Shown piece after piece: positions 33,978-51,868 of a stretch of DNA of 64,000 bases. The translations under genes and the position numbers were made by a program. The notes below the pieces were generated by a model. It searched no databases and had not been told where the DNA came from. It saw only the letters and a program-made list of their open reading frames with translations. Every line of letters begins with the position of its first letter. Position 1 is the stretch's first letter. The stretch is from NCBI GenBank assembly GCA_965195195.1, contig CBDAFF010000039.1, forward strand, positions 137,188 through 201,187, in the 5' to 3' direction. This stretch comes from an uncultured Anaerolineales bacterium. Its GTDB lineage: Bacteria; Chloroflexota; Anaerolineae; Anaerolineales; E44-bin32.

Positions 33978-34062
33978 ACTGAATATTTTTTCTACCGGGT
34001 AAACATGAATTAACTGGCGTTTGAATTTCTTTGCTGCCTCCTTTCTGGCCTTTTAGTCATGC

Positions 34063-34090
34063 TTGACTGTGAATAACATAGGGTTATAAT
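34063..34090 (+). promoter_or_regulatory. Near-consensus sigma-70-type promoter for the regulator gene, and probably for the downstream operon
   Basis: TTGACT (34063-34068), a 16-nt spacer, then TATAAT (34085-34090). AGGAG lies 8 nt before the GTG start at 34122. Confidence 0.6.
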
Positions 34091-34104
34091 TCAGCCACTG
34101 AATT
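34088..34104. promoter_or_regulatory. Palindromic operator candidate overlapping the -10/+1 region
   Basis: A perfect inverted repeat, AATTCAG-cca-CTGAATT. A 17/19-identical copy of TATAATTCAGCNANTGAAT lies upstream of gmd at 26717-26735. Confidence 0.5.
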
Positions 34105-34121
34105 TTAGAAGGAGAAACATA

Positions 34122-34649: not shown

Positions 34650-34727
34650 CGGTGTGTCTGATCAAGGATCGGTTGCATTGAATGACCGCCTGTAAGGGCG
34701 AGCGTAGAAATCTAAGAAGAGGTCAAG

Positions 34728-35693: not shown

Positions 35694-35708
35694 CGTTAAG
35701 GGAAAGTT

Positions 35709-36569
35709 GTGAACGAAACGACATCTTCACTTGAAAAACAAGAGGTAGAGAAGTTAACAGTCATCCAACCCTCGCGTGGGTGGGCGTGGATCGACATCCG
35801 TGAGCTATGGCGTTACCGTGAGCTCATCTACTTTCTCGTCTGGCGCGATATCAAGGTTCGCTACAAACAAACCTTGCTCGGTGCAGCCTGGGCTATCTTA
35901 AAGCCCTTCCTGAGCATGGTCATTTTCACGGTGATTTTCTCAGGCCTGGCGAATTTGGATACGGACGGTGCTCCGCCCCCTGTCTTCTATTTTTCCGGTC
36001 TGCTCCCATGGGTGCTTTTCCAGGATGGCGTTGCCAAAGCGGGGAACAGCCTTGTCACCGGCAGTAGCCTGATCACGAAAGTCTACTTCCCACGTATCGC
36101 GATTCCCCTGGCATCTGTCCTGTCCGGTGTTGTTGATTTTGCACTGTCTTTTCTCGTACTTATCGGAATGATGATTTATTACGGCGTCCGCCCTACGGAT
36201 GCGATTTGGACATTACCCTTGTTCCTTCTTCTAGCATTAGTGACCGCTCTAGGTGTGGGGCTATGGCTTTCAGCGTTGAACGTGCAATACCGCGATGTGG
36301 GGTATGTAACGCCTTTTCTTCTCCAGGCGTGGATGTATGCATCGCCAGTGGTTTATTCGGCGACGTTGATCCCGGACGGCTGGGCGAGAATCGCCTACGG
36401 GCTTAACCCGATGGCGGGTGTGGTTCAAGGTTTTCGATGGGCGATCCTGGGAGTGGGGGAACCGCCATCGGGATTGATAATCCTTTCGATCGTGATGGCG
36501 ATATCTCTTCTTATTAGCGGGATGCTCTACTTCAAACGGATGGAGCGAACCTTCGCCGATGTGGTGTAG
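35709..36569 (+). CDS. wzm: ABC-2 type polysaccharide export permease (Wzm-like)
   Basis: The N-terminal block LWRYRELIYFLVWRDIKVRYKQTLLGAAWAILKP is diagnostic of the Wzm/TagG/KpsM family. Six TM helices. Confidence 0.9.
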   Translation: MNETTSSLEKQEVEKLTVIQPSRGWAWIDIRELWRYRELIYFLVWRDIKVRYKQTLLGAAWAILKPFLSMVIFTVIFSGLANLDTDGAPPPVFYFSGLLPWVLFQDGVAKAGNSLVTGSSLITKVYFPRIAIPLASVLSGVVDFALSFLVLIGMMIYYGVRPTDAIWTLPLFLLLALVTALGVGLWLSALNVQYRDVGYVTPFLLQAWMYASPVVYSATLIPDGWARIAYGLNPMAGVVQGFRWAILGVGEPPSGLIILSIVMAISLLISGMLYFKRMERTFADVV

Positions 36570-36575
36570 CGACTG

Positions 36576-37835
36576 ATGAATGATGCAATTAGGGTTGAGG
36601 ATTTAGGGAAACGGTATCGAATCGGCGGTATGCCGAGTGGGTATCGGACATTGCGAGATGCTCTGGCGAGCAGCCTGCGCCGGTTGAGCCGCCGTGAACC
36701 CCCACCATCAAAAGACACAATCTGGGCTTTGAGACACATTAATTTCAATGTGGAGCGAGGGCAAGTGCTGGGTATTGTAGGCCGGAATGGCGCCGGGAAG
36801 AGCACACTCTTGAAGCTGCTCTCGCGCGTTACAGATCCGACAGAGGGAAAGGCGGAGATCTATGGGCGTGTGGGCTCGCTGCTTGAGGTCGGCACTGGTT
36901 TTCACCCCGAACTCACCGGACGGGAAAATATTTATCTCAATGGTGCCATCCTGGGCATGAAGCGCGCCGAGATCGAGCGCAAGTTCGAAGAAATCGTGGA
37001 CTTCGCGGAGGTGCGAAAATTCATCGATACCCCCGTGAAACGCTATTCCAGCGGCATGTACCTTCGCCTTGCTTTCGCCGTAGCGGCTCATTTAGAGCCG
37101 GAGATTCTCGTCGTTGACGAGGTTCTGGCGGTCGGAGATGCAGAGTTTCAGCGCAAATGTCTGGGCAAGATGAGCGATGTTGCCCATGAGGGACGGACAG
37201 TACTTTTTGTCAGTCACAATATGTCGGCAATCCTGCGCCTAACCGAAGAGACGATTGTGCTGGATAAGGGGCAGATTGTAATGCGGGGTCCCACGCCTGA
37301 GGCCGTGGATTTCTACATGACCTCGGAAATGGCGCGTTCGGGGGAGCGCCGGTGGGAACCAGGCGACGATTACCAGACCAACAACCCGTTTCATCCGCTG
37401 GCCATTCGCGTTCTTGATTCTCAAGGAAGAGTAGCAGATCGAGTGCTCTCTTCCGAGGATTTCAGTGTGGAGTTCGAGTATGAGCTTCAGGAGGAGTTAA
37501 CCGGTTTGCGAGTGGGGATGTACTTGGCTACAAGTCGAGGCGAGCAGGTTTTCACATCCTTTGATACGGATAATCCAGAGACATACGAACGTCTCACGGA
37601 ACGACGCAAGGGTCACTATCTCAGCAGGTGCCGCATCCCACGCGATCTTCTCAACGGAGGAGTTTTCGTCCTCGGCGTTAATGCCAGCTCATTTCGGATT
37701 CGGTCCTACTTCACAGATGAACATGCGCTCACCTTCACCGTCGATCCGACGGGCGCACCAGGGAGTCAATGGGCTGAGTTTCGACGTGGACCTGTTCGCC
37801 CGGCACTGAACTGGGAAATCACCAAGGTTGTGTGA
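36576..37835 (+). CDS. wzt: Polysaccharide export ABC ATPase (Wzt-like) with a C-terminal extension of about 170 aa (probable glycan-binding Wzt_C-type domain)
   Basis: Walker A GRNGAGKST, signature YSSGMYLRLAFA, Walker B ILVVDEVLAVGD. After about residue 250 there is an extra beta-rich domain, as in O-antigen Wzt proteins that recognise chain-terminal caps. Confidence 0.85.
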   Translation: MNDAIRVEDLGKRYRIGGMPSGYRTLRDALASSLRRLSRREPPPSKDTIWALRHINFNVERGQVLGIVGRNGAGKSTLLKLLSRVTDPTEGKAEIYGRVGSLLEVGTGFHPELTGRENIYLNGAILGMKRAEIERKFEEIVDFAEVRKFIDTPVKRYSSGMYLRLAFAVAAHLEPEILVVDEVLAVGDAEFQRKCLGKMSDVAHEGRTVLFVSHNMSAILRLTEETIVLDKGQIVMRGPTPEAVDFYMTSEMARSGERRWEPGDDYQTNNPFHPLAIRVLDSQGRVADRVLSSEDFSVEFEYELQEELTGLRVGMYLATSRGEQVFTSFDTDNPETYERLTERRKGHYLSRCRIPRDLLNGGVFVLGVNASSFRIRSYFTDEHALTFTVDPTGAPGSQWAEFRRGPVRPALNWEITKVV

Positions 37836-39466
37836 TAACCATGCCATCAACCCGGTCTTGGATAAAAACGCTAGCCGGTCAGATTCCTATGACGGCAGAG
37901 TTGTACCAGAACCTTTTTGGGCGCGAGCGTCTGCCTGCGGACGGTTTTGAATTAAACCGCCTCAAGGGACATTTGCCCTCCTGGACTGCGGCTGTTGCCG
38001 AGGTTCGAAGGGGCGCAGAGAAGGCTGACCTTAAGCGCGTAGTGGTTTTCGGGTACCTCCATTGGTGGCTGGAGTACGCCACAGCGCTGGCCCTAATGCT
38101 TGTGGCGCAGGGTCATGAAGTAACGCTGGCATTCCTACCGTACCGCCGCTGGACGGATGAAGTCGCCGCGTTTGATATCCGCCGCCAACGCACGTATATC
38201 CAGCGCGTTTTAGCACAAGCGGCTCCAGTGTTGAAGTATCAGGATTTATCGGCAGTGCGCCCCGGAGAGCTTCCAGAAGCTTTGGAGCAATCGCTCCGAC
38301 AGTTGTCCCACACGGATGTTCAATACACCTTGCAGCGAGAAGATGTCAACTTGAAGGAGGGCAGTTCCGAGGAAGCCCTTTTTGAATTACGACTTCGTCG
38401 GAACCGGACTGCGGCTGCAGGGATTTTCGAACTGCTCAACAAGGGTTCTTTCGATGCAATCGTGATACCCAATGGGAGCATTTTGGAGTTTGGCGCGGTT
38501 TATCGAACCGCGCGTCATCTGGGTGTGCCATCCATAACGTATGAATTTGGAGAACAGAGTGGGCGCATGTGGCTGAGTCAGAACGATGAAGTGATGAGGC
38601 AGGATACAAAAGCGCTCTGGGATGTTAGAGGGTCGATTCCCCTGGCTGATGCAGAGAGAGATGAGCTTCATTCGCTCCTTCAAGCCCGCCGGGGCGGAAA
38701 AACATGGGGGAATTTTGGTCGTCAATGGCAAACAGGGGAGAGCCACGGCGCAATGGGTGTCCGCCAAGTTTTGGGGCTAGATCCCGATCAGCCTGTCGTT
38801 CTGCTGGCGACAAACGTCGTTGGCGACAGTCTGGCGCTCAACAGGCAGATCTTTACCGACGGGATGTCAGATTGGCTTGAGCATACCGTTAAATATTTTG
38901 CAGAGCGATCTGATGCGCAGCTCGTCGTCCGCGTCCATCCGGGGGAGCTATTGGGCGCGGGGCATCCGTCTATTGAAATCGTGCGAAGCAGCCTCCCGGA
39001 GATGCCGGAGCATGTCGTTGTTGTACCGCCCGAGTCTGAGATAAACACCTACGACCTGATTGAACTTGCCCACTTGGGTCTTGTCTACACAACAACTACA
39101 GGATTGGAGATGGCATTGAGTGGAGTGCCGGTCATCACCGCAGGACAAACCCATTACCGCAGCAAGGGTTTCACAGACGATCCTTTGAGCCTGGAGGAGT
39201 ATCTTAACTTGATTGAAAGTCGGCTCGGAGAACCACTTGGGCGCCGATTGGATGAGAACCAGGTAAACCTCGCCTGGCGGTACGCTCACCGTTTCTTCTT
39301 TGAGTATCCTTTTCGATTCCCCTGGCACTTGCTGCAGTTCTGGGATGATATGGCCTCGCATCCTCTGGAAGAGGTTATCCAATCGACCAGAGTTAAACCA
39401 TATCTAGAGACCCTGAAAGTATTCACAGGTGAACCGATAAACTGGTTGAAACATGGTAATGAATGA
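37832..39466 (+). CDS. Capsule_synth-like (KpsC/KpsS-like) putative ulosonic/nonulosonic-acid transferase
   Basis: Blocks resembling those of the KpsC/KpsS family: PVVLLATNVVGDSLAL (compare LPLQVxxDSQ) and LVVRVHPGE (compare KxHP). This is recognised from memory of the family, so confidence is only moderate. Confidence 0.45.
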   Translation: MITMPSTRSWIKTLAGQIPMTAELYQNLFGRERLPADGFELNRLKGHLPSWTAAVAEVRRGAEKADLKRVVVFGYLHWWLEYATALALMLVAQGHEVTLAFLPYRRWTDEVAAFDIRRQRTYIQRVLAQAAPVLKYQDLSAVRPGELPEALEQSLRQLSHTDVQYTLQREDVNLKEGSSEEALFELRLRRNRTAAAGIFELLNKGSFDAIVIPNGSILEFGAVYRTARHLGVPSITYEFGEQSGRMWLSQNDEVMRQDTKALWDVRGSIPLADAERDELHSLLQARRGGKTWGNFGRQWQTGESHGAMGVRQVLGLDPDQPVVLLATNVVGDSLALNRQIFTDGMSDWLEHTVKYFAERSDAQLVVRVHPGELLGAGHPSIEIVRSSLPEMPEHVVVVPPESEINTYDLIELAHLGLVYTTTTGLEMALSGVPVITAGQTHYRSKGFTDDPLSLEEYLNLIESRLGEPLGRRLDENQVNLAWRYAHRFFFEYPFRFPWHLLQFWDDMASHPLEEVIQSTRVKPYLETLKVFTGEPINWLKHGNE

Positions 39467-40382
39467 AGATGAGGTGAAGTTAGTTAATTCTGAATCTGGC
39501 ATCAAGCAGGGTGTGCGGGAGTTCTACGATTCGGTCGGTTGGAAGCAAATCGGCGATGACATCTATCAGAACGCTCGCTATGAAGATCTACGCCCGGTCT
39601 CACGGGAGTATATCCACCGCTGCCATCTGCGCGTTTCACGGCACTTAAATCGAGAAGGTGAGTACCTCCTCGATGCTGGTTCGGGTCCGATCCAATACCC
39701 AGAGTACTTAGAGTATTCCTCCGGTTTCCGGTACCGTGTCTGCCTGGATATTTCCATTTTGGCTTTAAAGGAAGCAAGAGAACGGATCGGGAGCCATGGG
39801 CTGTTTGTCGTGGGCGATGTGGCTAATTTACCCTTTAAGCGCAATGCCTTTGATGGGGTGGCCTCCCTGCATACGGTTCATCACTTGCCGGCAGAGGAGC
39901 AACGCCAGGCTTTCGAGGAACTGTACCGTGTCCTCAGCGTTGGCAATCGAGCAGTAGTTATTTACAGTTGGGGCGATCATGCACTCCTGGTTCGATTGAC
40001 CCGGCTCCCTATCCAATTTGCTTTTGGCCTGTTGAGACTATACCAACGTCTGAGGCAAAAAGAGGATGAATATTCGCAACCGGCGAGTGCAGATGAGTCT
40101 GCCGAGACAGCCCGGATGGTACAACCTACGGGAACTTTTACGTATAAACATGATTACGATTGGGTATGTCGAGAATTGGAAGACATCCAGGGTCTACAAG
40201 TGGTCGTCTGGAGGAGCGTAAGCACTGCCTTTCTTCGGGCATTCATCCACAGGCTATTTCTTGGTAAGTGGTGGCTCCGCGTACTTTTTTGGACGGAGGA
40301 GAGAGCTCCGCGTCTACTCGGGCGGATAGGTCAATATCCCATGATCTTGTTTAAGAAACAAGTGGAAGTCGAGGACAGGTAA
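39453..40382 (+). CDS. Class I SAM-dependent methyltransferase
   Basis: Motif I LLDAGSGPIQYP, and post-I/II GDVANLPFKRNAFDGVASLHTVHHL. Confidence 0.8.
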   Translation: MVMNEDEVKLVNSESGIKQGVREFYDSVGWKQIGDDIYQNARYEDLRPVSREYIHRCHLRVSRHLNREGEYLLDAGSGPIQYPEYLEYSSGFRYRVCLDISILALKEARERIGSHGLFVVGDVANLPFKRNAFDGVASLHTVHHLPAEEQRQAFEELYRVLSVGNRAVVIYSWGDHALLVRLTRLPIQFAFGLLRLYQRLRQKEDEYSQPASADESAETARMVQPTGTFTYKHDYDWVCRELEDIQGLQVVVWRSVSTAFLRAFIHRLFLGKWWLRVLFWTEERAPRLLGRIGQYPMILFKKQVEVEDR

Positions 40383-40387
40383 TCGAG

Positions 40388-41392
40388 GTGAAACGCATGA
40401 ACTGGAATGAGAAAGTTGTATTAATCACCGGCGGTACGGGCTCCTTTGGCCGGAAATTCACCAGGGTTCTGCTCGATGATTACAACCCGGTGAAGCTGAT
40501 CGTGTTTAGCCGGGATGAACTCAAGCAGTATGAGATGAAGACTGCAGGTTTTGATAATCCGAACATAAGGTACTTCATCGGCGATGTGCGGGATTTGATG
40601 CGTTTGCGACGGGCGATGCAGGGTGTAGATATCGTCGTCCATGCCGCTGCGTTGAAGCAGGTGCCAGCTTGCGAATACAACCCCATTGAAGCCATCATGA
40701 CCAACATCATTGGAGGGCGAAACGTCGTCGAAGCTGCGCTTGATACCGGGGTTGAGAAAGTGATGGCGCTGAGCACCGACAAGGCGGTAAACCCCATCAA
40801 TCTGTATGGGGCGACGAAGCTGGCGGCGGAGAAACTGTTTATTCAGTCGAATGCGTATGCGGGTGGAACAGGGACGAGATTTTCATGCGTGCGTTATGGC
40901 AACGTCGTTGGCAGCCGGGGCAGCGTCGTCCCGGTCTTTGTAAACCAGCGATCGAAGGGGAAGATCACGATCACAGATGAACGAATGACGCGCTTCTGGC
41001 TCTCCTTGGAGGAGGGGGTACGTTTCACCATCCGCTGCATCGAGCAAATGGAGGGTGGGGAAGTATTTGTACCAAAAATCCCTTCGATGCGGGTTGTCGA
41101 TCTCGCTAATGCCATCGCACCAGACACTGAGATTGAAGTGATAGGGATCCGTCCTGGGGAGAAACTGCACGAAGTATTAGTTTCAGAAGACGAAGCACGA
41201 CACACTCTTGAATTGGAAGATATGTACGTTGTCGAACCACCGGCAGCGTTATGGTTTGGTCGCGGCTGGCGGGATCGAGGGAAACGACTGCCGGAGGGGT
41301 ACCGATATACAAGCGATGGCAACGATCAATGGCTCGACGAGAGTAAAATTCGCGAGCTCGTTGAACCGTTTGAGAATCCAACAACGGAGTAA
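40388..41392 (+). CDS. pseB: UDP-N-acetylglucosamine 4,6-dehydratase (inverting), PseB/FlaA1-type
   Basis: It matches my recollection of Helicobacter FlaA1 along almost its whole length: ITGGTGSFG, SRDELKQ, FIGDVRD, HAAALKQVP, LSTDKAVNPINLYGATKL, VRYGNVVGSRGSVVP, MTRFW, GGEVFVPKIPSM and GIRPGEKLHE. Confidence 0.85.
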   Translation: MKRMNWNEKVVLITGGTGSFGRKFTRVLLDDYNPVKLIVFSRDELKQYEMKTAGFDNPNIRYFIGDVRDLMRLRRAMQGVDIVVHAAALKQVPACEYNPIEAIMTNIIGGRNVVEAALDTGVEKVMALSTDKAVNPINLYGATKLAAEKLFIQSNAYAGGTGTRFSCVRYGNVVGSRGSVVPVFVNQRSKGKITITDERMTRFWLSLEEGVRFTIRCIEQMEGGEVFVPKIPSMRVVDLANAIAPDTEIEVIGIRPGEKLHEVLVSEDEARHTLELEDMYVVEPPAALWFGRGWRDRGKRLPEGYRYTSDGNDQWLDESKIRELVEPFENPTTE

Positions 41393-41403
41393 CTCACAAG
41401 AAT

Positions 41404-42324
41404 ATGCCCCGTCTATTGATCACCGGCGCGAGCGGTTTACTGGGAGCTAACCTCGTCTTGACTGCTCACGAGGCGTACGAGGTAATGGCTGTCTACCATC
41501 GGCATCCCATCGAACTGAAGGGAGTCCAATCAAAGTCGGCAGATCTGAGTCAGCAAGGCAGATCGAAAGAGTTGTTCGATCGTTTTCAACCAGATTGGGT
41601 AATCCACTGTGCAGCGGATACGTCTATCGATGAACTTGAAAGTAACCCTAAGCGTGCATTTCGTATGAACAGGGATATGGCAGCTAACGTAGCTGAAGCC
41701 GCAAAGGAAACCGGAGCCAAGCTGGTCCACATATCGACTGACGCCGTCTTCGATGGTATTTCGGGGTCCTACCGGGAGGATGACCCAACCGAACCGGTGA
41801 ACGTCTATGGGAAGAGTAAACTCACGGGAGAGCAAGCTGTGCAAGCGCTCTGCCCTGAAGCTTTGATCATCCGTACAAATATATTTGGCTGGAATGCTCA
41901 ACCGAAGAGTTCTTTAGCGGAGTGGTTTATCGATAACCTTATGCAAGGGGTCTCATGCAAGGGGTTTGTTGATGTGTATTTCAATCCATTACTCGTAAAT
42001 CAACTGTGGGTAATCATCAATAGTTTAATGAGATTAGATTTGGGTGGAGTATTTCATGTGGGATCGGATCAATGTATATCAAAGTACGAGTTTGGCGTCC
42101 GACTTGCTGAATCCTTTGATCTAAACAAGGAGCTCATTAGCGCCGTTGAGATTGAGACGGGAAATTTGCGAGCGCCCCGTCCAAAAAACACTTGCCTTGA
42201 TTGCTCTAAGATTAGGAAAGTTATTAACGTAGAATTACTGGATTTAGAATCAAATATTAGTTTCTTCCATAGACTTGAGCAATCGGGTTATGTTGAAGAT
42301 ATCAGGAAAATGGCTATCCAATAA
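41404..42324 (+). CDS. RmlD-like SDR reductase (dTDP-4-dehydrorhamnose reductase family)
   Basis: ITGASGLLG, HCAADTS, ISTDAVFDG and YGKSKLTGE (YxxxK). The length and order of these blocks match the RmlD_sub_bind family. Confidence 0.75.
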   Translation: MPRLLITGASGLLGANLVLTAHEAYEVMAVYHRHPIELKGVQSKSADLSQQGRSKELFDRFQPDWVIHCAADTSIDELESNPKRAFRMNRDMAANVAEAAKETGAKLVHISTDAVFDGISGSYREDDPTEPVNVYGKSKLTGEQAVQALCPEALIIRTNIFGWNAQPKSSLAEWFIDNLMQGVSCKGFVDVYFNPLLVNQLWVIINSLMRLDLGGVFHVGSDQCISKYEFGVRLAESFDLNKELISAVEIETGNLRAPRPKNTCLDCSKIRKVINVELLDLESNISFFHRLEQSGYVEDIRKMAIQ

Positions 42325-42358
42325 TTCGTCCACACCGCAGAGCTTGAGGATATACAAG

Positions 42359-43162
42359 ATGTATGAACTGCTTGAGATCTCATTGGCTGACACCCAGCGC
42401 TTGTTGTCGTACAAAAGGGATCTGGATCTAGAAATCCATCTAAACATTAAGGGTTTTGACTACGGCTGGATTTTGAATTCAGTAGAGTGGAAACCGGAGA
42501 TGAAGGTTTTAGATGTCGGAGCCGGTTACTCTCGATTACCTTTGCATATTGCGCGAACATTTGGCTGTGAGGTTTGGTCAGTCGATGATTTCGGTTTTGG
42601 TGATGATGGGTATTGGGCGCGGAACCAGGATCCAAATGCATATATTCGAGAGAATTCGGATGTGAGATTCATCCTTGAGAAGGTTGGCAAATCCCAAAAA
42701 TCAAGTCTTCCAGAAAATTACTTTGATGTCATTTATAGTGCGTCTGCATTGGAGCATATTGAGCCATCCCAAGTGCCTGGTGTGTGGTTGCACATGAGCA
42801 AGATTCTCAAATCTGGTGGTCTGATGCTGCATGCGCTCGATATCGCCTTCCCTACTAGTAGAGGATGGCCGCATGTCCTTATGGCAGAAGCCTTTGATGT
42901 TCTCTATCCCCTGCTCCCTAAAAGTATTCGCACGAGGTATCTTTATGAAACACCGAAATCTTATATTCGACATATCGCTAAAACCATTGAAATTAACACA
43001 TTCGGTAGACTTGGAGATGTTGGCATTGTAAACATGGTTATAAATCCGGAGATTGTTACAGAGCCCCTAGATTACACACTCAACCGTATGATCAAGGATG
43101 GCGACGAAACGGCGAGATATTTTAGAGTAGGCTCGCTGCAAATTGCTTTAAAGAAAAGATGA
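42359..43162 (+). CDS. Class I SAM-dependent methyltransferase (AT-rich gene)
   Basis: Motif I VLDVGAGYSRLP, and later FDVIYSASALEHI. The start is moved to ATG 42359 to remove the overlap with the reductase. Confidence 0.65.
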   Translation: MYELLEISLADTQRLLSYKRDLDLEIHLNIKGFDYGWILNSVEWKPEMKVLDVGAGYSRLPLHIARTFGCEVWSVDDFGFGDDGYWARNQDPNAYIRENSDVRFILEKVGKSQKSSLPENYFDVIYSASALEHIEPSQVPGVWLHMSKILKSGGLMLHALDIAFPTSRGWPHVLMAEAFDVLYPLLPKSIRTRYLYETPKSYIRHIAKTIEINTFGRLGDVGIVNMVINPEIVTEPLDYTLNRMIKDGDETARYFRVGSLQIALKKR

Positions 43163-43180
43163 TCGAGGAAGGTTAATATT

Positions 43181-44254
43181 ATGATGCAAATCGCGATTGA
43201 GGACCGTCTTGTAGGCGAGTCATACCCTGTTTATTTTATCGCTGACATCGCCGCGAACCATGACGGCGACTTAGAACGGGCGAAGATGCTTATCCGAATG
43301 GCGAAGGATGCAGGCGCAGAAGCGGCGAAATTCCAAAACTTTAGCGCGCCGAAAATCGTTTCGGATTACGGTTTCAAGACCTTGGGAAGTCAGTTGTCCC
43401 ATCAGACTAAGTGGAAGAAATCCGTGTTCGAAGTCTATCAAGACGCATCCGTCCCCTGGGATTGGACACCCATCTTGAAGGAAGAGTGCGATAAAGTAGG
43501 CATTCACTATTTCTCTTCCCCCTATGATTTTGAAACCATCGACATGCTTGACCCCTTTGTCCCAGCCTTTAAGGCGGGTTCTGGATTGATGAGTTGGCCC
43601 GAAGCGCTGGTTTATATGGCCAGCAAAGGAAAGCCCATAATCATGGCAACGGGCGCGAGCGAGTTGGGCGAAGTGGTAGAGAACGTAAGCGCTGTTCTGG
43701 AAGTAAATCCAGATCTCGTGTTGATGCAATGTAACACTAATTACACCGCCAACCTGGAGAACTTCGATCATATCCACTTGAATGTGCTGAAGACGTACGC
43801 ATCACTCTTCCCGGATGTTGTCTTGGGCTTATCGGACCACACTCCGGGTCATGCGACGGTTCTTGGAGCCGTCACCTTAGGTGCACGAGCGGTTGAGAAG
43901 CATTTTACGGATGACAACGACCGCGAGGGTCCAGACCATAAATTTGCTTTGGATCCAGATGCCTGGGTGGAGATGGTCGATAGAACACGCGAACTCGAGC
44001 GTGCATTTGGTTCTTCTGTTAAACGTGTAGCAGACAATGAGAAGGAGACAGTGGTCCTTCAGCGGCGGTGTCTTAGGGCGGCGCGCGACATCAAAGTAAA
44101 TGAGGTGCTCACGGGAGAGATGATCGATGTTCTGCGGCCGGCCACGCCAGGTGCGATCCCACCTAAAGAGATCGGGGCCGTTGTTGGCACAAAGGCAGCG
44201 GAAGATATCACGACGGGAGAGGCGCTGTTCTGGACGAAGCTGGTGGGCGATTGA
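43181..44254 (+). CDS. N-acetylneuraminate-synthase-family enzyme (NeuB/PseI/LegI/SpsE-like) with C-terminal SAF domain
   Basis: IADIAANHDGDLERAKMLIRMAKDAGAEAAKFQ, LSDHTPG and a C-terminal SAF-like region (RAARDIKVNEVLTGEMI). Confidence 0.85.
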   Translation: MMQIAIEDRLVGESYPVYFIADIAANHDGDLERAKMLIRMAKDAGAEAAKFQNFSAPKIVSDYGFKTLGSQLSHQTKWKKSVFEVYQDASVPWDWTPILKEECDKVGIHYFSSPYDFETIDMLDPFVPAFKAGSGLMSWPEALVYMASKGKPIIMATGASELGEVVENVSAVLEVNPDLVLMQCNTNYTANLENFDHIHLNVLKTYASLFPDVVLGLSDHTPGHATVLGAVTLGARAVEKHFTDDNDREGPDHKFALDPDAWVEMVDRTRELERAFGSSVKRVADNEKETVVLQRRCLRAARDIKVNEVLTGEMIDVLRPATPGAIPPKEIGAVVGTKAAEDITTGEALFWTKLVGD

Positions 44255-45372
44255 GGGTTTTGTATTTCACACGCGGCTTCGGGCCGCACGATCAGCGTTT
44301 TGTCTCCGCTCTGCTTGAGCTGGGGCATGAAGTCATCTATCTTAGCTTGATGGCCAACAGGGATGGCTTGACTGGAAGCACGTTTTCAAACCGAGTCCAC
44401 ATAGAGGAAGCTCTCGTAGGAGACGGGGATCTTGGATGGTTTGACTTAATGAGACTGATTTCGAAGACGAAGGAAACCCTCCGGCGGGTTCGTCCAGATG
44501 TGGTTCATGCAGGACCGATCCAGAAATCGGCGTTGCTGACCGCATTAGCGGGCTACCACCCACTGGTCAGTATGTCGTGGGGGTCAGATCTGCTGATGGA
44601 TGCTCGTCGCGGGATTGGACGTTGGGGGGCAAAACTCACACTTAACCGCAGTGATGCACTGTTGTGCGATTGTCAGGCGGTGAAGGAAAGGGCGCGAGCT
44701 TTAGGTATGCCGTCGGAGCGGATCGTCGTTTTCCCATGGGGTGTGAATCTCAGTCATTTCAATCCGCAAGGATCCGCTGAAGCGCGTCAGAGATTAGGCT
44801 GGGATCCGAATTTCGTCCTGTTATCCGCGCGGATGTGGGAACCGATTTATGGCGTTGATCTACTGGTCAAGGCATTCGTCCAAGCGGCGAAGCGGCTCCC
44901 CAAGCTTAGGTTAATTATGCTCGGCGATGGCTCTCAACGTACTTTGATCCATGATTTATTGGCAGATGCCGGACTAGAGGAACGAGTTCACTTCGCGGGT
45001 ATGATTGCGAACGCTTCCCTACCGGATTACTATCGCTCGGCGGATTTATACATCAGTGCTTCACACAGCGATGGCAGCTCGGTGTCCCTTCTGGAAGCGA
45101 TGGCTTGTGGCTTGCCATCCGTGGTTTCCAATATCCCCGGGAACATGGAATGGGTGAAGCATGGTGAGACGGGCTGGTTTTTTGCTGACAGAGCGGTTGA
45201 TGAGTTGACTCAGGGGATTTTCACAGCGGGCCAACATAAGGATAATTTGAAATCAATGGGGCAGATAGCTCGAGATGTGGTTGAGGCGCGAGCGGATTGG
45301 AACAAGAATTATCCAAAGATGACCGAGGCGTATCAGATGGCAATCGATTACGCGAACAGACGGGTGATGTGA
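44251..45372 (+). CDS. GT-B glycosyltransferase, family 4-like
   Basis: EX7E region EAMACGLPSVVSNIPGNMEWV with GT4 architecture. Confidence 0.8.
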   Translation: MRVLYFTRGFGPHDQRFVSALLELGHEVIYLSLMANRDGLTGSTFSNRVHIEEALVGDGDLGWFDLMRLISKTKETLRRVRPDVVHAGPIQKSALLTALAGYHPLVSMSWGSDLLMDARRGIGRWGAKLTLNRSDALLCDCQAVKERARALGMPSERIVVFPWGVNLSHFNPQGSAEARQRLGWDPNFVLLSARMWEPIYGVDLLVKAFVQAAKRLPKLRLIMLGDGSQRTLIHDLLADAGLEERVHFAGMIANASLPDYYRSADLYISASHSDGSSVSLLEAMACGLPSVVSNIPGNMEWVKHGETGWFFADRAVDELTQGIFTAGQHKDNLKSMGQIARDVVEARADWNKNYPKMTEAYQMAIDYANRRVM

Positions 45373-46124
45373 ACAAGCAGCGAGTAGTAGGGATCATCCA
45401 GGCTCGTATGAGTTCTAACCGACTTCCTGGTAAGGTTTTGCTGGATATCGGTGGTGAGCCCATGCTCATGAGGGTGTTTACCCGAGCAAGACGGGCGAAA
45501 CGACTAGACGAAGTGGTTATTGCCACGAGTGTGGACGTTGAGGATGAACCGATTTTGCGCTTATGCGAGGAGAGAGGCGTCCCATATTCACGCGGAAGTG
45601 TATTGGATGTACTCGATCGCTTCAAGAATGCAGCCCGAGAGCACGGTGCGGAGATTGTCGTCAGGCTCACGGCGGATTGCCCGGTGATCGATCCGGTCTT
45701 GATTGATCAAACTGTAGATGCATTTCTCGCGTCTGATCCACCAGTTGATTTAGCAGTCAATCGCTTGCCGTGGGATCGGACATTCCCAATTGGGCTTGAT
45801 ACAGAGGTGTGTGCCAGCTCAACATTGGAAATCGCCTGGCGTGAAGCAGATGAGCCGCACCAGCGTGAACATGTCATGCCTTTCTTATACGAGAACCCTG
45901 AACGCTTTAGAATTTTGCATGTTCGGAACGAAAAGGATTACGGTCGATTGCGCTGGACGGTGGATACCGCAGATGATCTGACTTTCATCCGTGAAATCTA
46001 CGCTCGCTTTGGTGGGCGTGATGATTTCACGTGGGGTGATGTATTAGCTTTACTTGAGAAGGAACCAGAACTTGCGGAGATCAACGCACATGTCCAGCAC
46101 AAATCACACCTGGATGTTGGCTGA
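45369..46124 (+). CDS. Cytidylyltransferase (CTP_transf_3; SpsF/PseF/NeuA-like CMP-sugar synthetase)
   Basis: N-terminal IIQARMSSNRLPGKVL. The GTG at 45369 overlaps the upstream TGA stop (ATGTGA). The track's longer ORF (45297) runs inside the GT4 gene. Confidence 0.75.
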   Translation: MNKQRVVGIIQARMSSNRLPGKVLLDIGGEPMLMRVFTRARRAKRLDEVVIATSVDVEDEPILRLCEERGVPYSRGSVLDVLDRFKNAAREHGAEIVVRLTADCPVIDPVLIDQTVDAFLASDPPVDLAVNRLPWDRTFPIGLDTEVCASSTLEIAWREADEPHQREHVMPFLYENPERFRILHVRNEKDYGRLRWTVDTADDLTFIREIYARFGGRDDFTWGDVLALLEKEPELAEINAHVQHKSHLDVG

Positions 46125-46169
46125 GATGATTGAGTTCATTGGCGATAAAAATCCGAGGAAGAAATCTGG

Positions 46170-47138
46170 ATGCTGACGATATTCAGCGCGCCTAAACCTT
46201 TTTCTGACCCGCATATTGCGCGAATACAGCGAAACGCGATCGCTTCTTGGCTGCACCTTGGTGAGGAAGTTGAGGTCCTACTTATTGGAGACGAGCTAGG
46301 GCTGGCGGAAGTAGGAGCTGAACTCGGGGTTAAGGTGCTTCGAGATGTAGAGAGGAACGAGGAAGGCACCCCGCTCATCTCCTCAATATTCCAATTGGCG
46401 AGCCGTGAGTCGCAACACCCCTTTCTCTGTTATGCAAACGCCGATATCCTGCTTTTTGAAGATCTCATAGATGCAGTTCAACATATCTCATCTCGGTTCA
46501 ATGACTTTCTTATCCTTGGGCAACGATGGGATCTTGATCTAGAGCAGGAGCTAACCTTTGACGAGGGTTGGCCGCGGAGATTAATGGAGAATGTGCAGTC
46601 GCGAGGGCGAAGACACCCACCAATGGGCAGCGATTACTTCATCTTTCGGAAGGAGTTGTTTCAAGATATCCCAGCCTTCGCATTGGGCAGAGCGGGGTGG
46701 GATAATTGGATGATCTACGCGGGACGGAGAGCCGGCGTCCCGGTCGTCGATGCCAGTGAAGCGATTACCGTGGTCCATCAGAATCATGATTATCAACATC
46801 TTCCGAACAACCAACCCCACTACCGCTTACCGGAAAGTCTACGTAATATCGAGTTAGGCGGTGGCCGCGAGACTATATTCAATCTGTCGGATGCGACCTG
46901 GCGCATGGACCAAGAATCGCTTCTTCGGAATTATCCAATGCGGATAGGTATTAGACGCTGGGTGGAAACGGAATGTATCAGCCGATTTGGACCAGGGCGA
47001 TCGGCGCGGGTGATACAGCGACTTCTACACCCGATCCAGACTCTTCGTCAGTCAAAGGATGTCTTATGGCGCAGACTGAATAGCAAAGAAGCAAGTTCGA
47101 ATAATTCACCTACTATAGACGGGAGTCGAGGATCTTAA
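46170..47138 (+). CDS. Hypothetical protein, possibly a GT-A-fold transferase
   Basis: 322 aa and soluble. The N-terminal MLTIFSAPKPF and the YANADILLF segment resemble nucleotide-diphospho-sugar transferase strands. I recognise no family with confidence. Confidence 0.35.
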   Translation: MLTIFSAPKPFSDPHIARIQRNAIASWLHLGEEVEVLLIGDELGLAEVGAELGVKVLRDVERNEEGTPLISSIFQLASRESQHPFLCYANADILLFEDLIDAVQHISSRFNDFLILGQRWDLDLEQELTFDEGWPRRLMENVQSRGRRHPPMGSDYFIFRKELFQDIPAFALGRAGWDNWMIYAGRRAGVPVVDASEAITVVHQNHDYQHLPNNQPHYRLPESLRNIELGGGRETIFNLSDATWRMDQESLLRNYPMRIGIRRWVETECISRFGPGRSARVIQRLLHPIQTLRQSKDVLWRRLNSKEASSNNSPTIDGSRGS

Positions 47139-47139
47139 G

Positions 47140-48189
47140 ATGGGGCGAGTAGGAATGAACCCGGCGCGAAACCGGGTGAGCGATTATCGACCGGCCAAGG
47201 TTACCCTGGCTGTGCTGACCTCAATTCCGCATCATGTTGGGTACTTCAGCGGACGGTTCGATGTCTTGAAGCTCTGCCTGGCTAGTCTGGTGAAACATAC
47301 GGAAGACCCTCACGACTTATTGGTTTTCGATAATGACAGTTGTGGAGAAGTGAAAGACTTCCTCCGCGACATGCAAGAGCAGGGAGTGATACGCTTCCTG
47401 GTAAGCAGCAGTGAAAATGTCGGAAAACTCGGTGCCTTGCAGCTAATTTCCCAAGTCGCACCAGGAGAGATCATTGCCTATTGCGACGATGATACCTTTT
47501 TCTATCCTGGATGGCTTTCGGCTCACATTGAGCTGATGGAGTGGTTCCCTAAAGTGGGTGTCGTTAGTGGGATGATATGGCGAACATTGTATGATCACGG
47601 GATACGCGGGAACATGCAGATGGCAGAACATGACCCAGATATTGATCTAATATTTGGACAGAATATACCCGAGCAGTGGGAAATCGACTATGCGATCTCT
47701 TTGGGTCGTGATCTTCAACCCCATTTGGATCTCATACGGCAATTGGAGGACATCATTATTGAGCGGGATGGCGTTCGTGCCTTTGCTGCCGCGGGACACA
47801 GTCAGTTTGTCATCCGTAAGGAGATCTTACAAAATTTCCTCCCAGATCAATGGACGGGTCGGATGATGGGGGGAATGATGGACTTTGATAACGCGGTAGC
47901 GGATGCCGGTTACTTGCGGCTTTCAACCTCCGAGCGAACAACCCGGAATATCGGTGGGTTGATTACGGAGGACATTGCGGACGAGGCTAGGCGACTATCA
48001 TTACCCATTGATGAGAAATCTTGGGAGAACACAGATCTTCGGAAGGCATCAATGGCTACCAGGTTCCTCCGCTGGAGTCCCATCCGCTGGTTCCTGCAAG
48101 GTCTTTACAATCGACTCTTCTGGCTGCTTTCCAATCAATCGGGGGAGTGGTTCGACGAGGCTGATGTATTGGACAATCAAGCCGAATAA
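47140..48189 (+). CDS. GT-A (GT2-like) glycosyltransferase, paralog 1
   Basis: VLTSIP...VFDNDSCGEV and AYCDDDTFFYPGWL (DxD). It is collinear with the next gene. Confidence 0.7.
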   Translation: MGRVGMNPARNRVSDYRPAKVTLAVLTSIPHHVGYFSGRFDVLKLCLASLVKHTEDPHDLLVFDNDSCGEVKDFLRDMQEQGVIRFLVSSSENVGKLGALQLISQVAPGEIIAYCDDDTFFYPGWLSAHIELMEWFPKVGVVSGMIWRTLYDHGIRGNMQMAEHDPDIDLIFGQNIPEQWEIDYAISLGRDLQPHLDLIRQLEDIIIERDGVRAFAAAGHSQFVIRKEILQNFLPDQWTGRMMGGMMDFDNAVADAGYLRLSTSERTTRNIGGLITEDIADEARRLSLPIDEKSWENTDLRKASMATRFLRWSPIRWFLQGLYNRLFWLLSNQSGEWFDEADVLDNQAE

Positions 48190-48308
48190 ATAAGAGAACA
48201 GACGATCCTACAGCGATATCCTAAATCGATGGGAGTCTCTGCGAAAGCAGTTTATTTAGGGGCAACTTTTCAGGGAGCGAGCATGGTAGAAATGGGGTTG
48301 AAATTAGC

Positions 48309-49268
48309 ATGAGAAAGGGACAAAACCCAGCCAAATTTGTAAAACATGTTGCCAAACCGAAGCGCATAACGGTTGCGGTACTTACATACATCCCATTTCT
48401 AAGTGGTTACTATGCCGAATCCCTGGACGTTCTGACAGCTTGCCTTAACAGCCTTTGGCAAAACACAACTCTCCCCTTTGATCTTATGATATTCGATAAC
48501 GGAAGCTGTCCTGAGGTCGTAGGGTTTTTACAACACGCATTCCAAGAGGGAAGAATTCAATATCTTGTTCTCTCGGAGAAGAATCTGGGAAAGGGGGGAG
48601 CTTGGAACGTTATTTTCGAAGCGGCTCCTGGCGAGATCCTTGCCTATACCGATAGCGACGCCTATTTCCATTCCGGCTGGTTAGAAGCTTCGCTTGAAGT
48701 CCTCGAGATGTTCCCTAATGTGGGAATGGTCACAAGCCGACCTTTTCGAACGCCACCAGAATTATTCTCAAAGACCATCGAGTGGGCAGAGGCCGCGCCT
48801 GATGTAGATATTGAACGAGGTCAATATATCCCATGGGAAGCTTTCCGGGAGTTCGATATGAGCTTGGGGCAGGATGAAGATGAAGTACGGGCACGATATA
48901 CTTCTACAGAGGATGTCCGTCTTACCTATCGAGGCACTACAGCCTATGTGGGAGCATCCCATTGGCAATTTGTAGCGTGGAAGCCGGTTATTCGTCAATT
49001 TACACCGTTCGAGATGAATCGACCGATGGGCCAGGTTCGAGAGTTAGATCGAATGGTGGACCAAGCCGGATTGCTTCGCCTTATGACGTCCGAGCCTTTG
49101 GCGATGAACATGAGCAACACACTGCAATCGATCCCTGAAGAGGGTACTTCTCGCGGCTCTAAAGTTCAATCTCGTTCTCTAGGTATGATGATCCTGGAAA
49201 TTCCACTTATTAAACGGTTGTTACTCTTCATCTATAACCGGATCTTCCGTTGGTATTACTCAAAATAA
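48309..49268 (+). CDS. GT-A (GT2-like) glycosyltransferase, paralog 2
   Basis: VLTYIP...IFDNGSCPEV, AYTDSDAYFHSGWL and a C-terminal IYNRIFRWYY, which matches LYNRLFWLL in paralog 1. Confidence 0.7.
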   Translation: MRKGQNPAKFVKHVAKPKRITVAVLTYIPFLSGYYAESLDVLTACLNSLWQNTTLPFDLMIFDNGSCPEVVGFLQHAFQEGRIQYLVLSEKNLGKGGAWNVIFEAAPGEILAYTDSDAYFHSGWLEASLEVLEMFPNVGMVTSRPFRTPPELFSKTIEWAEAAPDVDIERGQYIPWEAFREFDMSLGQDEDEVRARYTSTEDVRLTYRGTTAYVGASHWQFVAWKPVIRQFTPFEMNRPMGQVRELDRMVDQAGLLRLMTSEPLAMNMSNTLQSIPEEGTSRGSKVQSRSLGMMILEIPLIKRLLLFIYNRIFRWYYSK

Positions 49269-49281
49269 TGCAATATTAAGT

Positions 49282-50760
49282 TTGCTGAATATTAGGATTG
49301 GAATGGGTAGCAAAACAATATTTATTACGGCAGATCATGGCCTGGCCATTGTTTACTTCCTGCAGACGGAAGTTTATAAAACGCTGCAGGAAGGCGGCGC
49401 CGAAATCGTGGTTCTAACGGATGATGGCCTCGTTGAACAAATTTCCCAACGCTTTCAGGATACAGGTGTGATCATTGAGGGGATGCGTCTGGCGCAGGTG
49501 CGGGAGTATGAGCGAGTCTCTTCAGACTTACAGTGGTGGCTGGGTTTTCTGCGCAGGGTAGGGGGCTCGAATCGAATCAACACCACGGCAATGGATAGCT
49601 ATGTTGACCAGGTTTTAGTTGAAGCTTCCCCACGGCAAGTTCCAGTTCTGCCTTTTGCATGGTTGCTCTTGTTGCTATTACGCCGTTCTGCGCGGGTTCG
49701 CCAAGCTCTTGTGGACTATCAACGGAAGTTCACCGCGAATATCTACGATGATCTTTTTGAGCGATATCAACCCTACCTTGTTGTCGGGAGCACACCGGGA
49801 TGGCGGCAGGACCGCTATCTACTTCGGGAGGCGGCTGCGCGTGGAGTACGCACCGCCTCAATCATCCTGGGTTGGGATAACCCGAGCAGCTACAGCCTGT
49901 CGGGAGCGCCCGTTGACAGCATTACTTGCTGGTCCGAAATTCAGAAAGAAGAACTAATACTTGGATCCGATTGGCTTCCAGAGGACGTGAGTATTGGAGG
50001 AATCCCGATCTATGATGGGTACTTCAAGAAACAGTGGTTGATGCCGCGCGAGGATTATTTCAGATTGCACGATTTGGATCCTGATCGAAAGTTGCTCTCC
50101 TACGCATGCAGCTTTATAAGTTTCTCGCCGAATTATCAGAACATTGAAGCCTTGGCGGAATTGGTTTCTTCAGATGCTCTTGTCGAACCGTCTCAGTTGC
50201 TGGTCAGATTACATCCGAATCACTTCTGGGACAATTGGCTGTTTCAAGATGAGCGAGAGCGAATTTACAAGCTGGCGAGTGAACTGCCTCACGTACACGT
50301 TGTAGAGCCGGTGCCGATCGGCGGCGAGCTAGGCTACTATTCTGGTGAGGACATGCCTGAGAAGGCTTCGATGATGGCACACGCGGACGTCTTTCTCACT
50401 GTGTATTCAACCATGGTCGTTGAAGCGGCGATTCACGATCGACCGGTCGTGAGTGTATGCATCGACGCACCAAAAGGGTGGGGATACGTCAGAAAGTTTT
50501 ACCTGCGGAAATATTCCCTTCCGCTCTCGAAAATCGGCGACTGGCCTACGCATGACCGATTCCGAAAATCGGGAGCTGGAAAAGTTGTTTACGATATTGC
50601 CCAACTGCAGGAAGCTATCAATAGCTATTTGAAACATCCGGGTGCCGACTCGGAGAATCGCAGGTCCTTTATCGAGCGAGAAGTGACGTTCACAGATGGC
50701 AGTGCAGGTCGGCGAACGGGCGAGATACTGCTTTCGATGCTTGAGGATGGAGCAAAATGA
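49282..50760 (+). CDS. Putative GT-B-like transferase (TagF/Capsule_synth-like surface carbohydrate biosynthesis protein)
   Basis: 492 aa and soluble. Blocks LLSYACSFISFSPN and LLVRLHPNH, then DVFLTVYSTMVVEAAIHDRPVV, a GT-B C-terminal-domain-like region. The family assignment is tentative. Confidence 0.4.
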   Translation: MLNIRIGMGSKTIFITADHGLAIVYFLQTEVYKTLQEGGAEIVVLTDDGLVEQISQRFQDTGVIIEGMRLAQVREYERVSSDLQWWLGFLRRVGGSNRINTTAMDSYVDQVLVEASPRQVPVLPFAWLLLLLLRRSARVRQALVDYQRKFTANIYDDLFERYQPYLVVGSTPGWRQDRYLLREAAARGVRTASIILGWDNPSSYSLSGAPVDSITCWSEIQKEELILGSDWLPEDVSIGGIPIYDGYFKKQWLMPREDYFRLHDLDPDRKLLSYACSFISFSPNYQNIEALAELVSSDALVEPSQLLVRLHPNHFWDNWLFQDERERIYKLASELPHVHVVEPVPIGGELGYYSGEDMPEKASMMAHADVFLTVYSTMVVEAAIHDRPVVSVCIDAPKGWGYVRKFYLRKYSLPLSKIGDWPTHDRFRKSGAGKVVYDIAQLQEAINSYLKHPGADSENRRSFIEREVTFTDGSAGRRTGEILLSMLEDGAK

Positions 50761-51734: not shown

Positions 51735-51868
51735 ATTGTTGAGGATCGAATAAGATTTACACATATTTCCAGAGAATAGGATAACATCTTCTCTTGCTGA
51801 AAGGCGTGATGTGTTAAAACCTCAATGGAAGGAAATTATTCAAAGCACTTGGAGCGCTAGACTTTAAA

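Follow-up and report, generated by a model that had tools for sequence, protein, structure and literature searches.

The segment 40,388–46,124 of a 64,000-nucleotide stretch of DNA from an uncultured Anaerolineales bacterium (contig CBDAFF010000039.1; the whole stretch is referred to below as the window) is almost certainly the nucleotide-sugar core of a conserved, Wzm/Wzt-dependent cell-envelope glycan locus. Its genes encode a PseB-type dehydratase, an RmlD-like reductase, a methyltransferase, a NeuB-family nonulosonate synthase, a glycosyltransferase of family GT4 and an SpsF-like cytidylyltransferase. All enzymes of the locus belong to known superfamilies, and it is the combination PseB–reductase–NeuB that appears to be new. 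Since the synthase and the cytidine monophosphate (CMP)-sugar synthetase are accompanied by two candidate transferases beside Wzm/Wzt, the locus very likely makes and uses a CMP-nonulosonate. A more tentative reading is that the reductase supplies the synthase with its substrate, which would give a 5-acetamido-3,5,9-trideoxy nonulosonate formed with no amination step.

The nucleotide-sugar core

The open reading frames (ORFs) named in a first-pass annotation of this DNA were all recovered in place in the ORF list of the window. Domains and families were assigned from Pfam and NCBIfam profile scores, judged against the curated cut-offs. The core consists of six genes:

40388–41392, + strand: PseB, inverting UDP-N-acetylglucosamine (UDP-GlcNAc) 4,6-dehydratase (TIGR03589)
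41404–42324, + strand: RmlD-like NAD(P)H 4-ketoreductase (Pfam RmlD_sub_bind, 192 bits)
42275–43162, + strand: class-I methyltransferase MT2 (Pfam Methyltransf_25/11/23; the L001 gene call being equivalent to 42290–43162)
43181–44254, + strand: NeuB-family nonulosonate synthase with a SAF domain (Pfam NeuB, 218.5 bits; SAF, 40.4 bits)
44251–45372, + strand: GT4 (GT-B, retaining) glycosyltransferase (Pfam Glycos_transf_1, 5.7e-31; Glyco_transf_4)
45369–46124, + strand: SpsF-like cytidylyltransferase, a CMP-ulosonate synthetase (Pfam CTP_transf_3, 106.6 bits)

The first-pass annotation had described a PseB-like dehydratase followed directly by an RmlD-family reductase and a methyltransferase, with a SAF-containing NeuB/PseI-family synthase and a CMP-sugar-synthetase-like cytidylyltransferase downstream, and the profile scores bear out each of these assignments. 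The product of 40388–41392 aligns over the full length of the PseB equivalog model TIGR03589 with 494.7 bits (cut-off 407.75), whereas it reaches only 246.5 bits against the FnlA model (cut-off 730); it is therefore a PseB-type inverting dehydratase, for which epimerization at C3 is not expected. The reductase matches RmlD_sub_bind but falls below the RmlD equivalog TIGR01214 (195.1 bits against a cut-off of 224.05), and is thus RmlD-like rather than RmlD itself. Its STD and YxxxK motifs are retained in an alignment to Protein Data Bank (PDB) entry 2GGS.

The cytidylyltransferase starts at an in-frame GTG at 45369 that overlaps the preceding stop codon, and the orthologue called in the related locus L002 agrees in length (251 residues). 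It scores 24.1 bits against the PseF model TIGR03584, for which the cut-off is 205.7. The sole full-length solved relative is PDB 6OEW (144.7 bits); KdsB structures align to its N-terminal half only.

The GT4 gene at 44251–45372 had been missed by the first-pass annotation. It shares 4 nt with the end of the NeuB gene and another 4 nt with the beginning of the cytidylyltransferase gene, and judging from these overlaps it is translationally coupled to both neighbours. The relatives found in the PDB are GtfA/Gtf1 and BshA, so that by sequence it looks like an ordinary GT4 using a UDP-N-acetylhexosamine (UDP-HexNAc) donor, as do the UDP-GlcNAc transferases GtfA and BshA.

Conservation across Anaerolineales

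A homologue search with the NeuB-like protein gave more than 8000 matches; the top 120 showed 69–95% identity and, where named, came from metagenome-assembled genomes (MAGs) of Anaerolineae/Chloroflexi. Scanning of relatives at one genome per species yielded 568 candidate stretches, and the best 80 of these 568 all belong to Anaerolineales-type MAGs, including some assigned to Anaerolinea, Longilinea, Leptolinea, Pelolinea and Brevefilum. When the window proteins were compared with the related loci by tblastn, one gene order was seen throughout about 65 Anaerolineales species: MarR regulator, Fcl-like protein, Wzm, Wzt, the KpsC/S-like protein U544, methyltransferase, PseB, reductase, NeuB, GT4, CMP-synthetase, a GT-A protein (U322), two GT2 glycosyltransferases and a BFO_1060-like protein (U492). 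The locus is common to essentially all sampled Anaerolineales.

Gene occurrence was counted over non-redundant loci with enough flanking sequence, split high-scoring segment pairs (HSPs) of frameshifted assemblies included. The RmlD-like reductase lies directly upstream of NeuB in all 67 loci, and GT4 follows NeuB in 53 of 53. PseB is present in 64 of 65 loci (median identity 72%), the cytidylyltransferase in 49 of 52, U544 in 59 of 60 and U322 in 48 of 51. In L060, L011, L056, L036 and L068, where PseB, the reductase and GT4 seemed to be lost, the genes are there as split HSPs of frameshifted assemblies; such splits account for all apparent gene losses but one.

The sole locus with the reductase, NeuB and GT4 but without PseB, U544 or Wzt upstream is L041 (DAOUBR010000019.1). 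It carries a DegT-type aminotransferase gene about 10 kb downstream, and its context may be a different one, older or rearranged.

Amination, acetylation and hydrolysis genes

The first-pass annotation had recognized no PseC, PseH, PseG or NeuC anywhere in the 64 kb. This was confirmed by Pfam or NCBIfam scans of every non-nested window ORF of at least 150 residues, minus a few nested or overlapping opposite-strand ORFs, and by tblastn. Among the scanned ORFs there was no match to DegT_DnrJ_EryC1 (PseC-type aminotransferase), no above-threshold match to Epimerase_2 (NeuC/LegG) or Glyco_tran_28_C (PseG), and no sugar N-acetyltransferase of the PseH type; the sole GCN5-related N-acetyltransferase of the window is the RimI-like product of 17681–18199, which lies within a tsaE-tsaB-rimI arrangement. 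Six-frame tblastn of the window with Escherichia coli WecE (aminotransferase), WecB (a NeuC homologue) and RffC returned noise, at E values of at least 0.27. Recognizable PseC-type, PseH-type and UDP-sugar hydrolase genes, which would place a canonical pseudaminic acid (Pse) pathway at the locus, were thus all missing from the window.

The same holds for the relatives. A DegT-type aminotransferase occurs within 10 kb in 1 of 85 loci, the atypical L041, and there at the outer margin; a weak WecB-like match was found in 1 of 85, and 84 of the 85 have no Epimerase_2 gene within 10 kb of NeuB. Because the canonical genes are also missing from the conserved core of about 65 species, their absence reflects neither an accident of assembly nor a decaying locus. 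The lack of amination and acetylation genes is a stable trait of the order-wide locus.

Two proteins were considered as candidates for the hydrolase and set aside. U322 has no Pfam match, and its profile gave noise against PDB sequences; Foldseek of its AlphaFold2 (AF2) model (predicted local distance difference test (pLDDT) score 90.5) matched GT-A glycosyltransferases and neither PseG nor NeuC, and U322 was rejected as a divergent PseG. For U544, a NeuC-like hydrolysing epimerase was considered because Foldseek E values were best for UDP-GlcNAc 2-epimerases. The corresponding TM-scores were poor (0.22–0.28), and the Capsule_synth match, the HP motif and the best TM-scores all point to KpsC/WbbB. 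Epimerase_2 is matched weakly by 7 of 30 U544 orthologues, and a NeuC-like function of U544 is unlikely, though not impossible.

The NeuB-like synthase and its substrate

The NeuB-like protein encoded at 43181 falls below the cut-offs of both NeuB (TIGR03569, 251.4 against 399.65 bits) and PseI (TIGR03586, 238.9 against 340.25 bits). Its family is 65–95% identical across Anaerolineales and, from these comparisons, constitutes an uncharacterized clade. The best relative in the PDB is the pseudaminic acid synthase 8H2C (155 bits), and the SpsE-like 1VLI matches at 144 bits. An Arg aligned with R314 of NmNeuB, which we take to be the residue contacting the N-acetyl group of the substrate, is invariant in the family as R319. 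The Anaerolineales proteins have GSGL or GSGD at the Glu-ending motif that reads KIGSGE, KIASFE and KIASYE in NmNeuB, PseI and SpsE. The family also has a 6-residue insertion after the N74 position, with an invariant S-H-Q..W-K-K. The suggestion that the C4–C6 binding region is clearly PseI-like was dropped, as identities there are 11/47 to PseI, 8/45 to NmNeuB and 9/46 to SpsE.

These scores bear on the possibility that a canonical Pse pathway operates, with pseC, pseH and pseG elsewhere in the genome and the reductase diverting part of the PseB product to a second sugar. PseB does pass its equivalog cut-off and, among solved structures, a PseI is closest to the synthase; moreover, the negative results cover the window and the locus flanks rather than whole genomes, and an insert described below, found in eight loci, implies amino-group chemistry in some variants. 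This alternative is nevertheless improbable: the synthase misses the PseI cut-off and has no Pse-type Phe, the cytidylyltransferase is not a PseF, a DegT aminotransferase is missing from the window and from the conserved core of about 65 species, and it would be unparsimonious for the three middle genes of a six-gene pathway always to lie elsewhere.

The reading that we tentatively put forward is that NeuB takes the product of the reductase as its substrate, so that a 5-acetamido-3,5,9-trideoxy nonulosonate would be formed. It is favoured because PseB and the reductase abut the synthase, R319 is invariant, PseI is the closest solved relative and the O-antigen of Fusobacterium nucleatum offers a chemical precedent. 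The cassette holds no source of hexosamine for NeuB other than PseB and the reductase.

Several observations weigh against it. A UDP-sugar hydrolase is not recognizable, a divergent one being possible; because this step has no recognizable enzyme, the passage from reductase product to NeuB substrate is unproven. The synthase is about equidistant from PseI (36% identity), SpsE (34%) and NmNeuB (31%). A Phe in the synthases of the Pse pathway has been proposed to select the L-altro configuration at C2 (PMC7371886). In the alignment the NeuB-like protein has Gly at this position and Thr at the position of a Ser in Pse enzymes, and residue 136, the equivalent of NmNeuB E134, is either Leu, as in the window protein and several relatives, or Asp, as in other relatives. 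Finally, pseC, pseH, pseG or neuC may lie elsewhere in the genome, outside the searched loci. The reduced-not-aminated route proposed by the first-pass annotation thus keeps its gene set and the absence of the canonical genes, and gains candidate transferases, whereas its link from the reductase to NeuB is weakened by the lack of a hydrolase, the equidistant synthase and the Gly in place of Phe.

The lack of a recognizable hydrolase in the cassette and the Gly at the C2-selectivity position, which is of the Neu/Leg type, would also fit two independent branches. A UDP-6-deoxy-HexNAc would then be incorporated directly by the GT4 or another transferase, and NeuB would use an aldose from outside the locus, for example N-acetylmannosamine (ManNAc) made by a NeuC encoded elsewhere. 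The UDP-sugar would be that of N-acetyl-L-altrosamine (L-AltNAc) or, following slow C5 re-epimerization by PseB, of N-acetyl-D-quinovosamine (D-QuiNAc) or N-acetyl-D-fucosamine (D-FucNAc). The GT4 relatives take UDP-HexNAc donors, and a dehydratase with an RmlD-like reductase that together supply a directly used UDP-6-deoxy-L-HexNAc is an established pattern, seen in WbvB/WbvR of Vibrio cholerae O37; a UDP-ManNAc-dehydrogenase-like gene at 18925–20262 hints, in addition, at ManNAc-type metabolism. Such a division, however, requires the substrate gene to lie outside a locus that in about 65 species is collinear and in all other respects self-contained. Only one of the 85 loci has an Epimerase_2 gene within 10 kb of NeuB, whereas PseB and the reductase constantly adjoin NeuB on its upstream side. 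We consider independent branches a serious, though not the leading, possibility, and one that is not mutually exclusive with the linked pathway.

Candidate nonulosonate transferases

U544, a protein of 544 residues with no predicted transmembrane segments, matches Pfam Capsule_synth (PF05159; KpsC/KpsS) at 24.9 bits (cut-off 20), as do 29 of 30 orthologues, the similarity being limited to the C-terminal domain. Its AF2 model (pLDDT 89.9) has a GT-B fold, for which the best TM-scores are to the β-Kdo (3-deoxy-D-manno-oct-2-ulosonic acid) transferases WbbB and KpsC, and the invariant RVHPGE of U544 aligns with the KpsC HP motif KVHPE. The protein therefore carries both PF05159 and the HP motif by which KpsC/KpsS proteins are recognized; its donor specificity is predicted.

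U492 is soluble and scores 30.8 bits against NCBIfam NF046086 (BFO_1060; cut-off 200). All 24 orthologues match this model, with a best E value of 1.1e-15 and every score below the cut-off of 200; because the scores lie so far under it, U492 can only be a distant BFO_1060 relative. The BFO_1060 family is named for a Tannerella forsythia transferase of Pse or legionaminic acid (Leg) derivatives with an HP motif typical of sialyltransferases (PMC5420450). The motif of the T. forsythia protein (Tanf_01245/BFO_1060; PMC5420450) is shared by U492 and the 24 orthologues, among which the scores are distant and the function is predicted. An hhalign comparison of U492 with U544 is weak and spans the HP motif. 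On sequence grounds U544 and U492 are two candidate CMP-ulosonate transferases.

The surrounding Wzm/Wzt locus

Rather than forming a nonulosonate cluster of their own, the core genes are embedded in a tightly packed, co-directional locus (about 34.1–51.7 kb), whose order-wide Wzm/Wzt context the first-pass annotation had overlooked. The other genes are as follows:

34122–34649, + strand: MarR/HTH_24-type regulator at the head of the locus (Pfam HTH_24, MarR; equal position in L002–L086)
34728–35693, + strand: Fcl-like short-chain dehydrogenase/reductase (SDR), GDP-4-keto-6-deoxymannose epimerase/reductase-like (Pfam Epimerase)
35709–36569, + strand: Wzm-type ABC-2 permease (Pfam ABC2_membrane)
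36576–37835, + strand: Wzt-type ATPase with a C-terminal carbohydrate-binding domain (Pfam ABC_tran and Wzt_C)
37832–39466, + strand: U544, GT-B HP-motif protein, KpsC/KpsS/WbbB-like, candidate CMP-ulosonate transferase
39453–40382, + strand: methyltransferase MT1 (Pfam Methyltransf_11, Methyltransf_25; 53 of 62 loci)
46170–47138, + strand: U322, GT-A fold glycosyltransferase-like protein of an undescribed family (AF2 model, Foldseek)
47140–48189, + strand: GT2 glycosyltransferase (Pfam Glycos_transf_2)
48309–49268, + strand: GT2 glycosyltransferase (Pfam Glycos_transf_2)
49282–50760, + strand: U492, soluble HP-motif BFO_1060-like protein, second candidate nonulosonate transferase (NF046086)
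50757–51734, + strand: GFO/IDH/MocA oxidoreductase (Pfam; 28 loci)

The locus thus holds an ABC2_membrane permease together with an ATPase bearing Wzt_C, the combination that marks Wzm/Wzt export. At 30.7 bits for a cut-off of 30.4, the Wzt_C match of the window is borderline, and it is weak in L002 but not in L004–L006; the best NCBIfam matches of the ATPase are TagH and the galactan Wzt. The Fcl-like SDR scores 297 bits against NCBIfam GDP-L-fucose synthase, below the cut-off of 500, and is found in 55 loci with a median identity of 69%.

The Fcl-like reductase in this conserved locus, together with a GMD gene in the window at 26774, raises the further possibility that NeuB takes a non-aminated 6-deoxyhexose from a GDP branch (GMD and the Fcl-like protein), or a sugar phosphate, giving a Kdn-like deoxy-nonulosonate. 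The cytidylyltransferase, KdsB-like in its N-terminal half only, could be accommodated by such a product. We regard this as very improbable, given that the Arg expected to contact an N-acetyl group is invariant, the cassette has no phosphatase, and the transporter genes part the Fcl-like gene from NeuB while PseB and the reductase abut it.

Variation within the locus

The slot of the second methyltransferase is variable: MT2 is found in two other loci only, a sulfotransferase takes its place in L002, and most loci have nothing there. The window and L002 share about 88% DNA identity over 33425–41934 and 43224–54255. The stretches between these blocks, 41934–43224 in the window and 8506–10044 in L002, are non-homologous, and comprise the C-terminal, substrate-binding half of the reductase with the methyltransferase (window) or the sulfotransferase (L002). 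From this comparison the exchange looks like a swapped cassette that ties the specificity half of the reductase to a tailoring enzyme.

In eight loci (for example L007, 12196–14298) two genes are inserted between GT4 and the cytidylyltransferase, one for an AAC(3)-like N-acetyltransferase (Antibiotic_NAT), the other for a DUF4910/DUF2172/Peptidase_M28-like protein. This gene pair may exchange the N-acyl group on an amino sugar. ORFs of 121–145 residues matching PF05635, the '23S rRNA-intervening sequence protein', are present inside the sugar operon in L019 (11128–11499) and about seven further loci, mostly in the gap between NeuB and GT4.

Flanking regions

A second glycan locus (18925–33977) lies directly upstream. 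It encodes an NDP-sugar dehydrogenase resembling UDP-ManNAc dehydrogenase, an SDR, a Wzx-type flippase and a GT4, together with two family-less proteins with 10 transmembrane segments, a GMD whose score exceeds the cut-off, a GT2 and an LPG_synthase_TM protein. Two further proteins, of 659 and 674 residues, have 11 transmembrane segments each. The gene for the 674-residue protein is kept upstream of MarR in L002 and L004.

Downstream, 51869–54579 encodes a protein with nine transmembrane segments, whose orthologues match PMT_2 weakly and are GT-C-like, followed by a GT2 resembling polyprenyl-phosphate sugar synthases (AglJ/ArnC/PpgS-like). The pair suggests that the exported polymer undergoes a further glycosylation outside the cytoplasm. 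Past about 52 kb the G+C content falls from about 0.51 to 0.44–0.47 (52000–64000), and a Replic_Relax protein and a TraD/VirD4-like coupling protein are encoded there, at 55283–57915 in particular; these features suggest that an integrated conjugative element borders the locus.

Comparison with known systems

The Pse pathway of Helicobacter pylori and Campylobacter jejuni (PseB-PseC-PseH-PseG-PseI-PseF) resembles the locus in its first step by PseB, its condensation with phosphoenolpyruvate (PEP) by a NeuB-family enzyme and its CMP activation by a CTP_transf_3 protein. At the Anaerolineales locus, by contrast, PseB is followed by an RmlD-like 4-reductase, without PseC, PseH or PseG; the synthase and cytidylyltransferase miss the PseI and PseF cut-offs, and the predicted product would carry a hydroxyl rather than an acetamido group at C7.

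An inverting UDP-GlcNAc 4,6-dehydratase followed by a 4-ketoreductase is also found in the routes to UDP-2-acetamido-2,6-dideoxy-L-hexoses, namely WbvB/WbvR/WbvD for N-acetyl-L-rhamnosamine (L-RhaNAc) and L-QuiNAc, in which WbvR is RmlD-like, and FnlABC/Cap5EFG for L-FucNAc. The locus differs from these in that its dehydratase is of the PseB type and not the FnlA type (494.7 against 246.5 bits), it has no Epimerase_2 2-epimerase, and its dehydratase/reductase pair stands beside a nonulosonate synthase. In the Bacillus subtilis sps operon, which makes legionaminic acid, a synthase (SpsE) and a cytidylyltransferase (SpsF) are accompanied by an aminotransferase (SpsC), an acetyltransferase (SpsD) and a hydrolase (SpsG) (PMC7439481). 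The pairing of an SpsE-like SAF-domain synthase with an SpsF-type cytidylyltransferase is common to both, whereas the SpsC, SpsD and SpsG steps were not found at the Anaerolineales locus.

The β-Kdo ABC systems, comprising the group 2 capsule genes (KpsMT/KpsC/KpsS/KpsU) and the WbbB systems of Klebsiella pneumoniae O12 and Raoultella terrigena with Wzm/Wzt, likewise combine an ABC-2 exporter, a KpsC/WbbB-like HP-motif GT-B protein and a KdsB-like cytidylyltransferase in one locus, and have a Wzt with a C-terminal binding domain. The ulosonic acid here would come from a NeuB-family synthase and not from KdsA, and the host is a member of Chloroflexota.

The closest chemical parallel is the O-antigen of F. 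nucleatum ATCC 25586, which according to PMC7371886 (citing, as its ref. 4, Vinogradov 2017) contains 6-deoxy-L-AltNAc and fusaminic acid (Fus), a 5-acetimidoylamino-3,5,9-trideoxy nonulosonate. The first-pass annotation had named fusaminic acid as the precedent, and within that source the comparison stands: the polymer holds exactly both sugar types proposed here, on chemical comparison only. Fusaminic acid differs in its 5-acetimidoyl group and its gluco configuration, which makes it a C4 epimer of the Pse-type product, and comes from another phylum. The literature searched gave no account of fusaminic acid biosynthesis, nothing relevant on 6-deoxy-L-AltNAc, and no paper on nonulosonic acids in Chloroflexi or on a PseB–reductase–NeuB route.

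Proposed pathway

In the pathway that we propose, PseB would convert UDP-GlcNAc to UDP-2-acetamido-2,6-dideoxy-β-L-arabino-hex-4-ulose, the chemistry expected of its family. The RmlD-like reductase would then reduce C4 in place of transamination by PseC, to give a UDP-6-deoxy-L-HexNAc, most likely UDP-6-deoxy-L-AltNAc provided that the stereochemistry of RmlD is kept. For removal of UDP, the best positional candidate would, speculatively, be the GT4 encoded between the NeuB-like and cytidylyltransferase genes. In some neuB-neuC-neuA clusters neuC sits between neuB and neuA, and the GT4 is put forward because, by position only, it occupies the neuC slot of such clusters. The NeuB-family synthase would condense the free 6-deoxy-HexNAc with PEP to a 5-acetamido-3,5,9-trideoxy-non-2-ulosonic acid, a 7-hydroxy analogue of pseudaminic acid in the class of fusaminic acid, and the SpsF-like cytidylyltransferase, by its family, would activate this to the CMP-sugar.

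U544, U492 or both could transfer the CMP-sugar to a lipid-linked glycan built by the GT4, the GT-A protein and the GT2s, which would be tailored by methyl- or sulfotransferases and exported through Wzm/Wzt. The terminal residue might act as an anchor or chain terminator and be read by the C-terminal domain of Wzt, by analogy with the β-Kdo-terminated O12 polymer. Some UDP-6-deoxy-L-HexNAc may also enter the glycan directly, compare F. nucleatum 25586. The complete scheme is of a novel, order-wide trideoxy nonulosonate made by PseB, the RmlD-like, the NeuB-like and the SpsF-like enzymes, released from UDP by a recruited GT4 or another non-PseG enzyme, and installed by a KpsC/WbbB-like transferase as an anchor or terminator read by Wzt. 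Taken with all of its parts, it is possible but doubtful.

Implications

Nonulosonic acids are known chiefly from pathogens. To our knowledge, the Neu, Leg and Pse routes are taken to cover these sugars, and the bacterial 9-deoxy forms are all thought to need 4-amination. An amination-free route would, if true, be a fourth biosynthetic logic for nonulosonic acids, and would give fusaminic acid, an orphan sugar, its first and testable gene model.

In anaerobic digesters, sediments and activated sludge, Anaerolineales rank among the filamentous groups of highest abundance, and their envelope chemistry is, as far as we know, essentially unknown; the pathway, if true, would give them an acidic surface sugar. 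Because the cassette occurs in MAGs assigned to genera with cultured members (Anaerolinea, Longilinea, Leptolinea, Pelolinea and Brevefilum), the prediction is directly testable. The combination of a NeuB-type synthase, a KpsC/WbbB-like transferase and a Wzt binding domain could widen, from Kdo to other sugars, the rule under which a terminal ulosonic acid acts as an anchor or an export signal.

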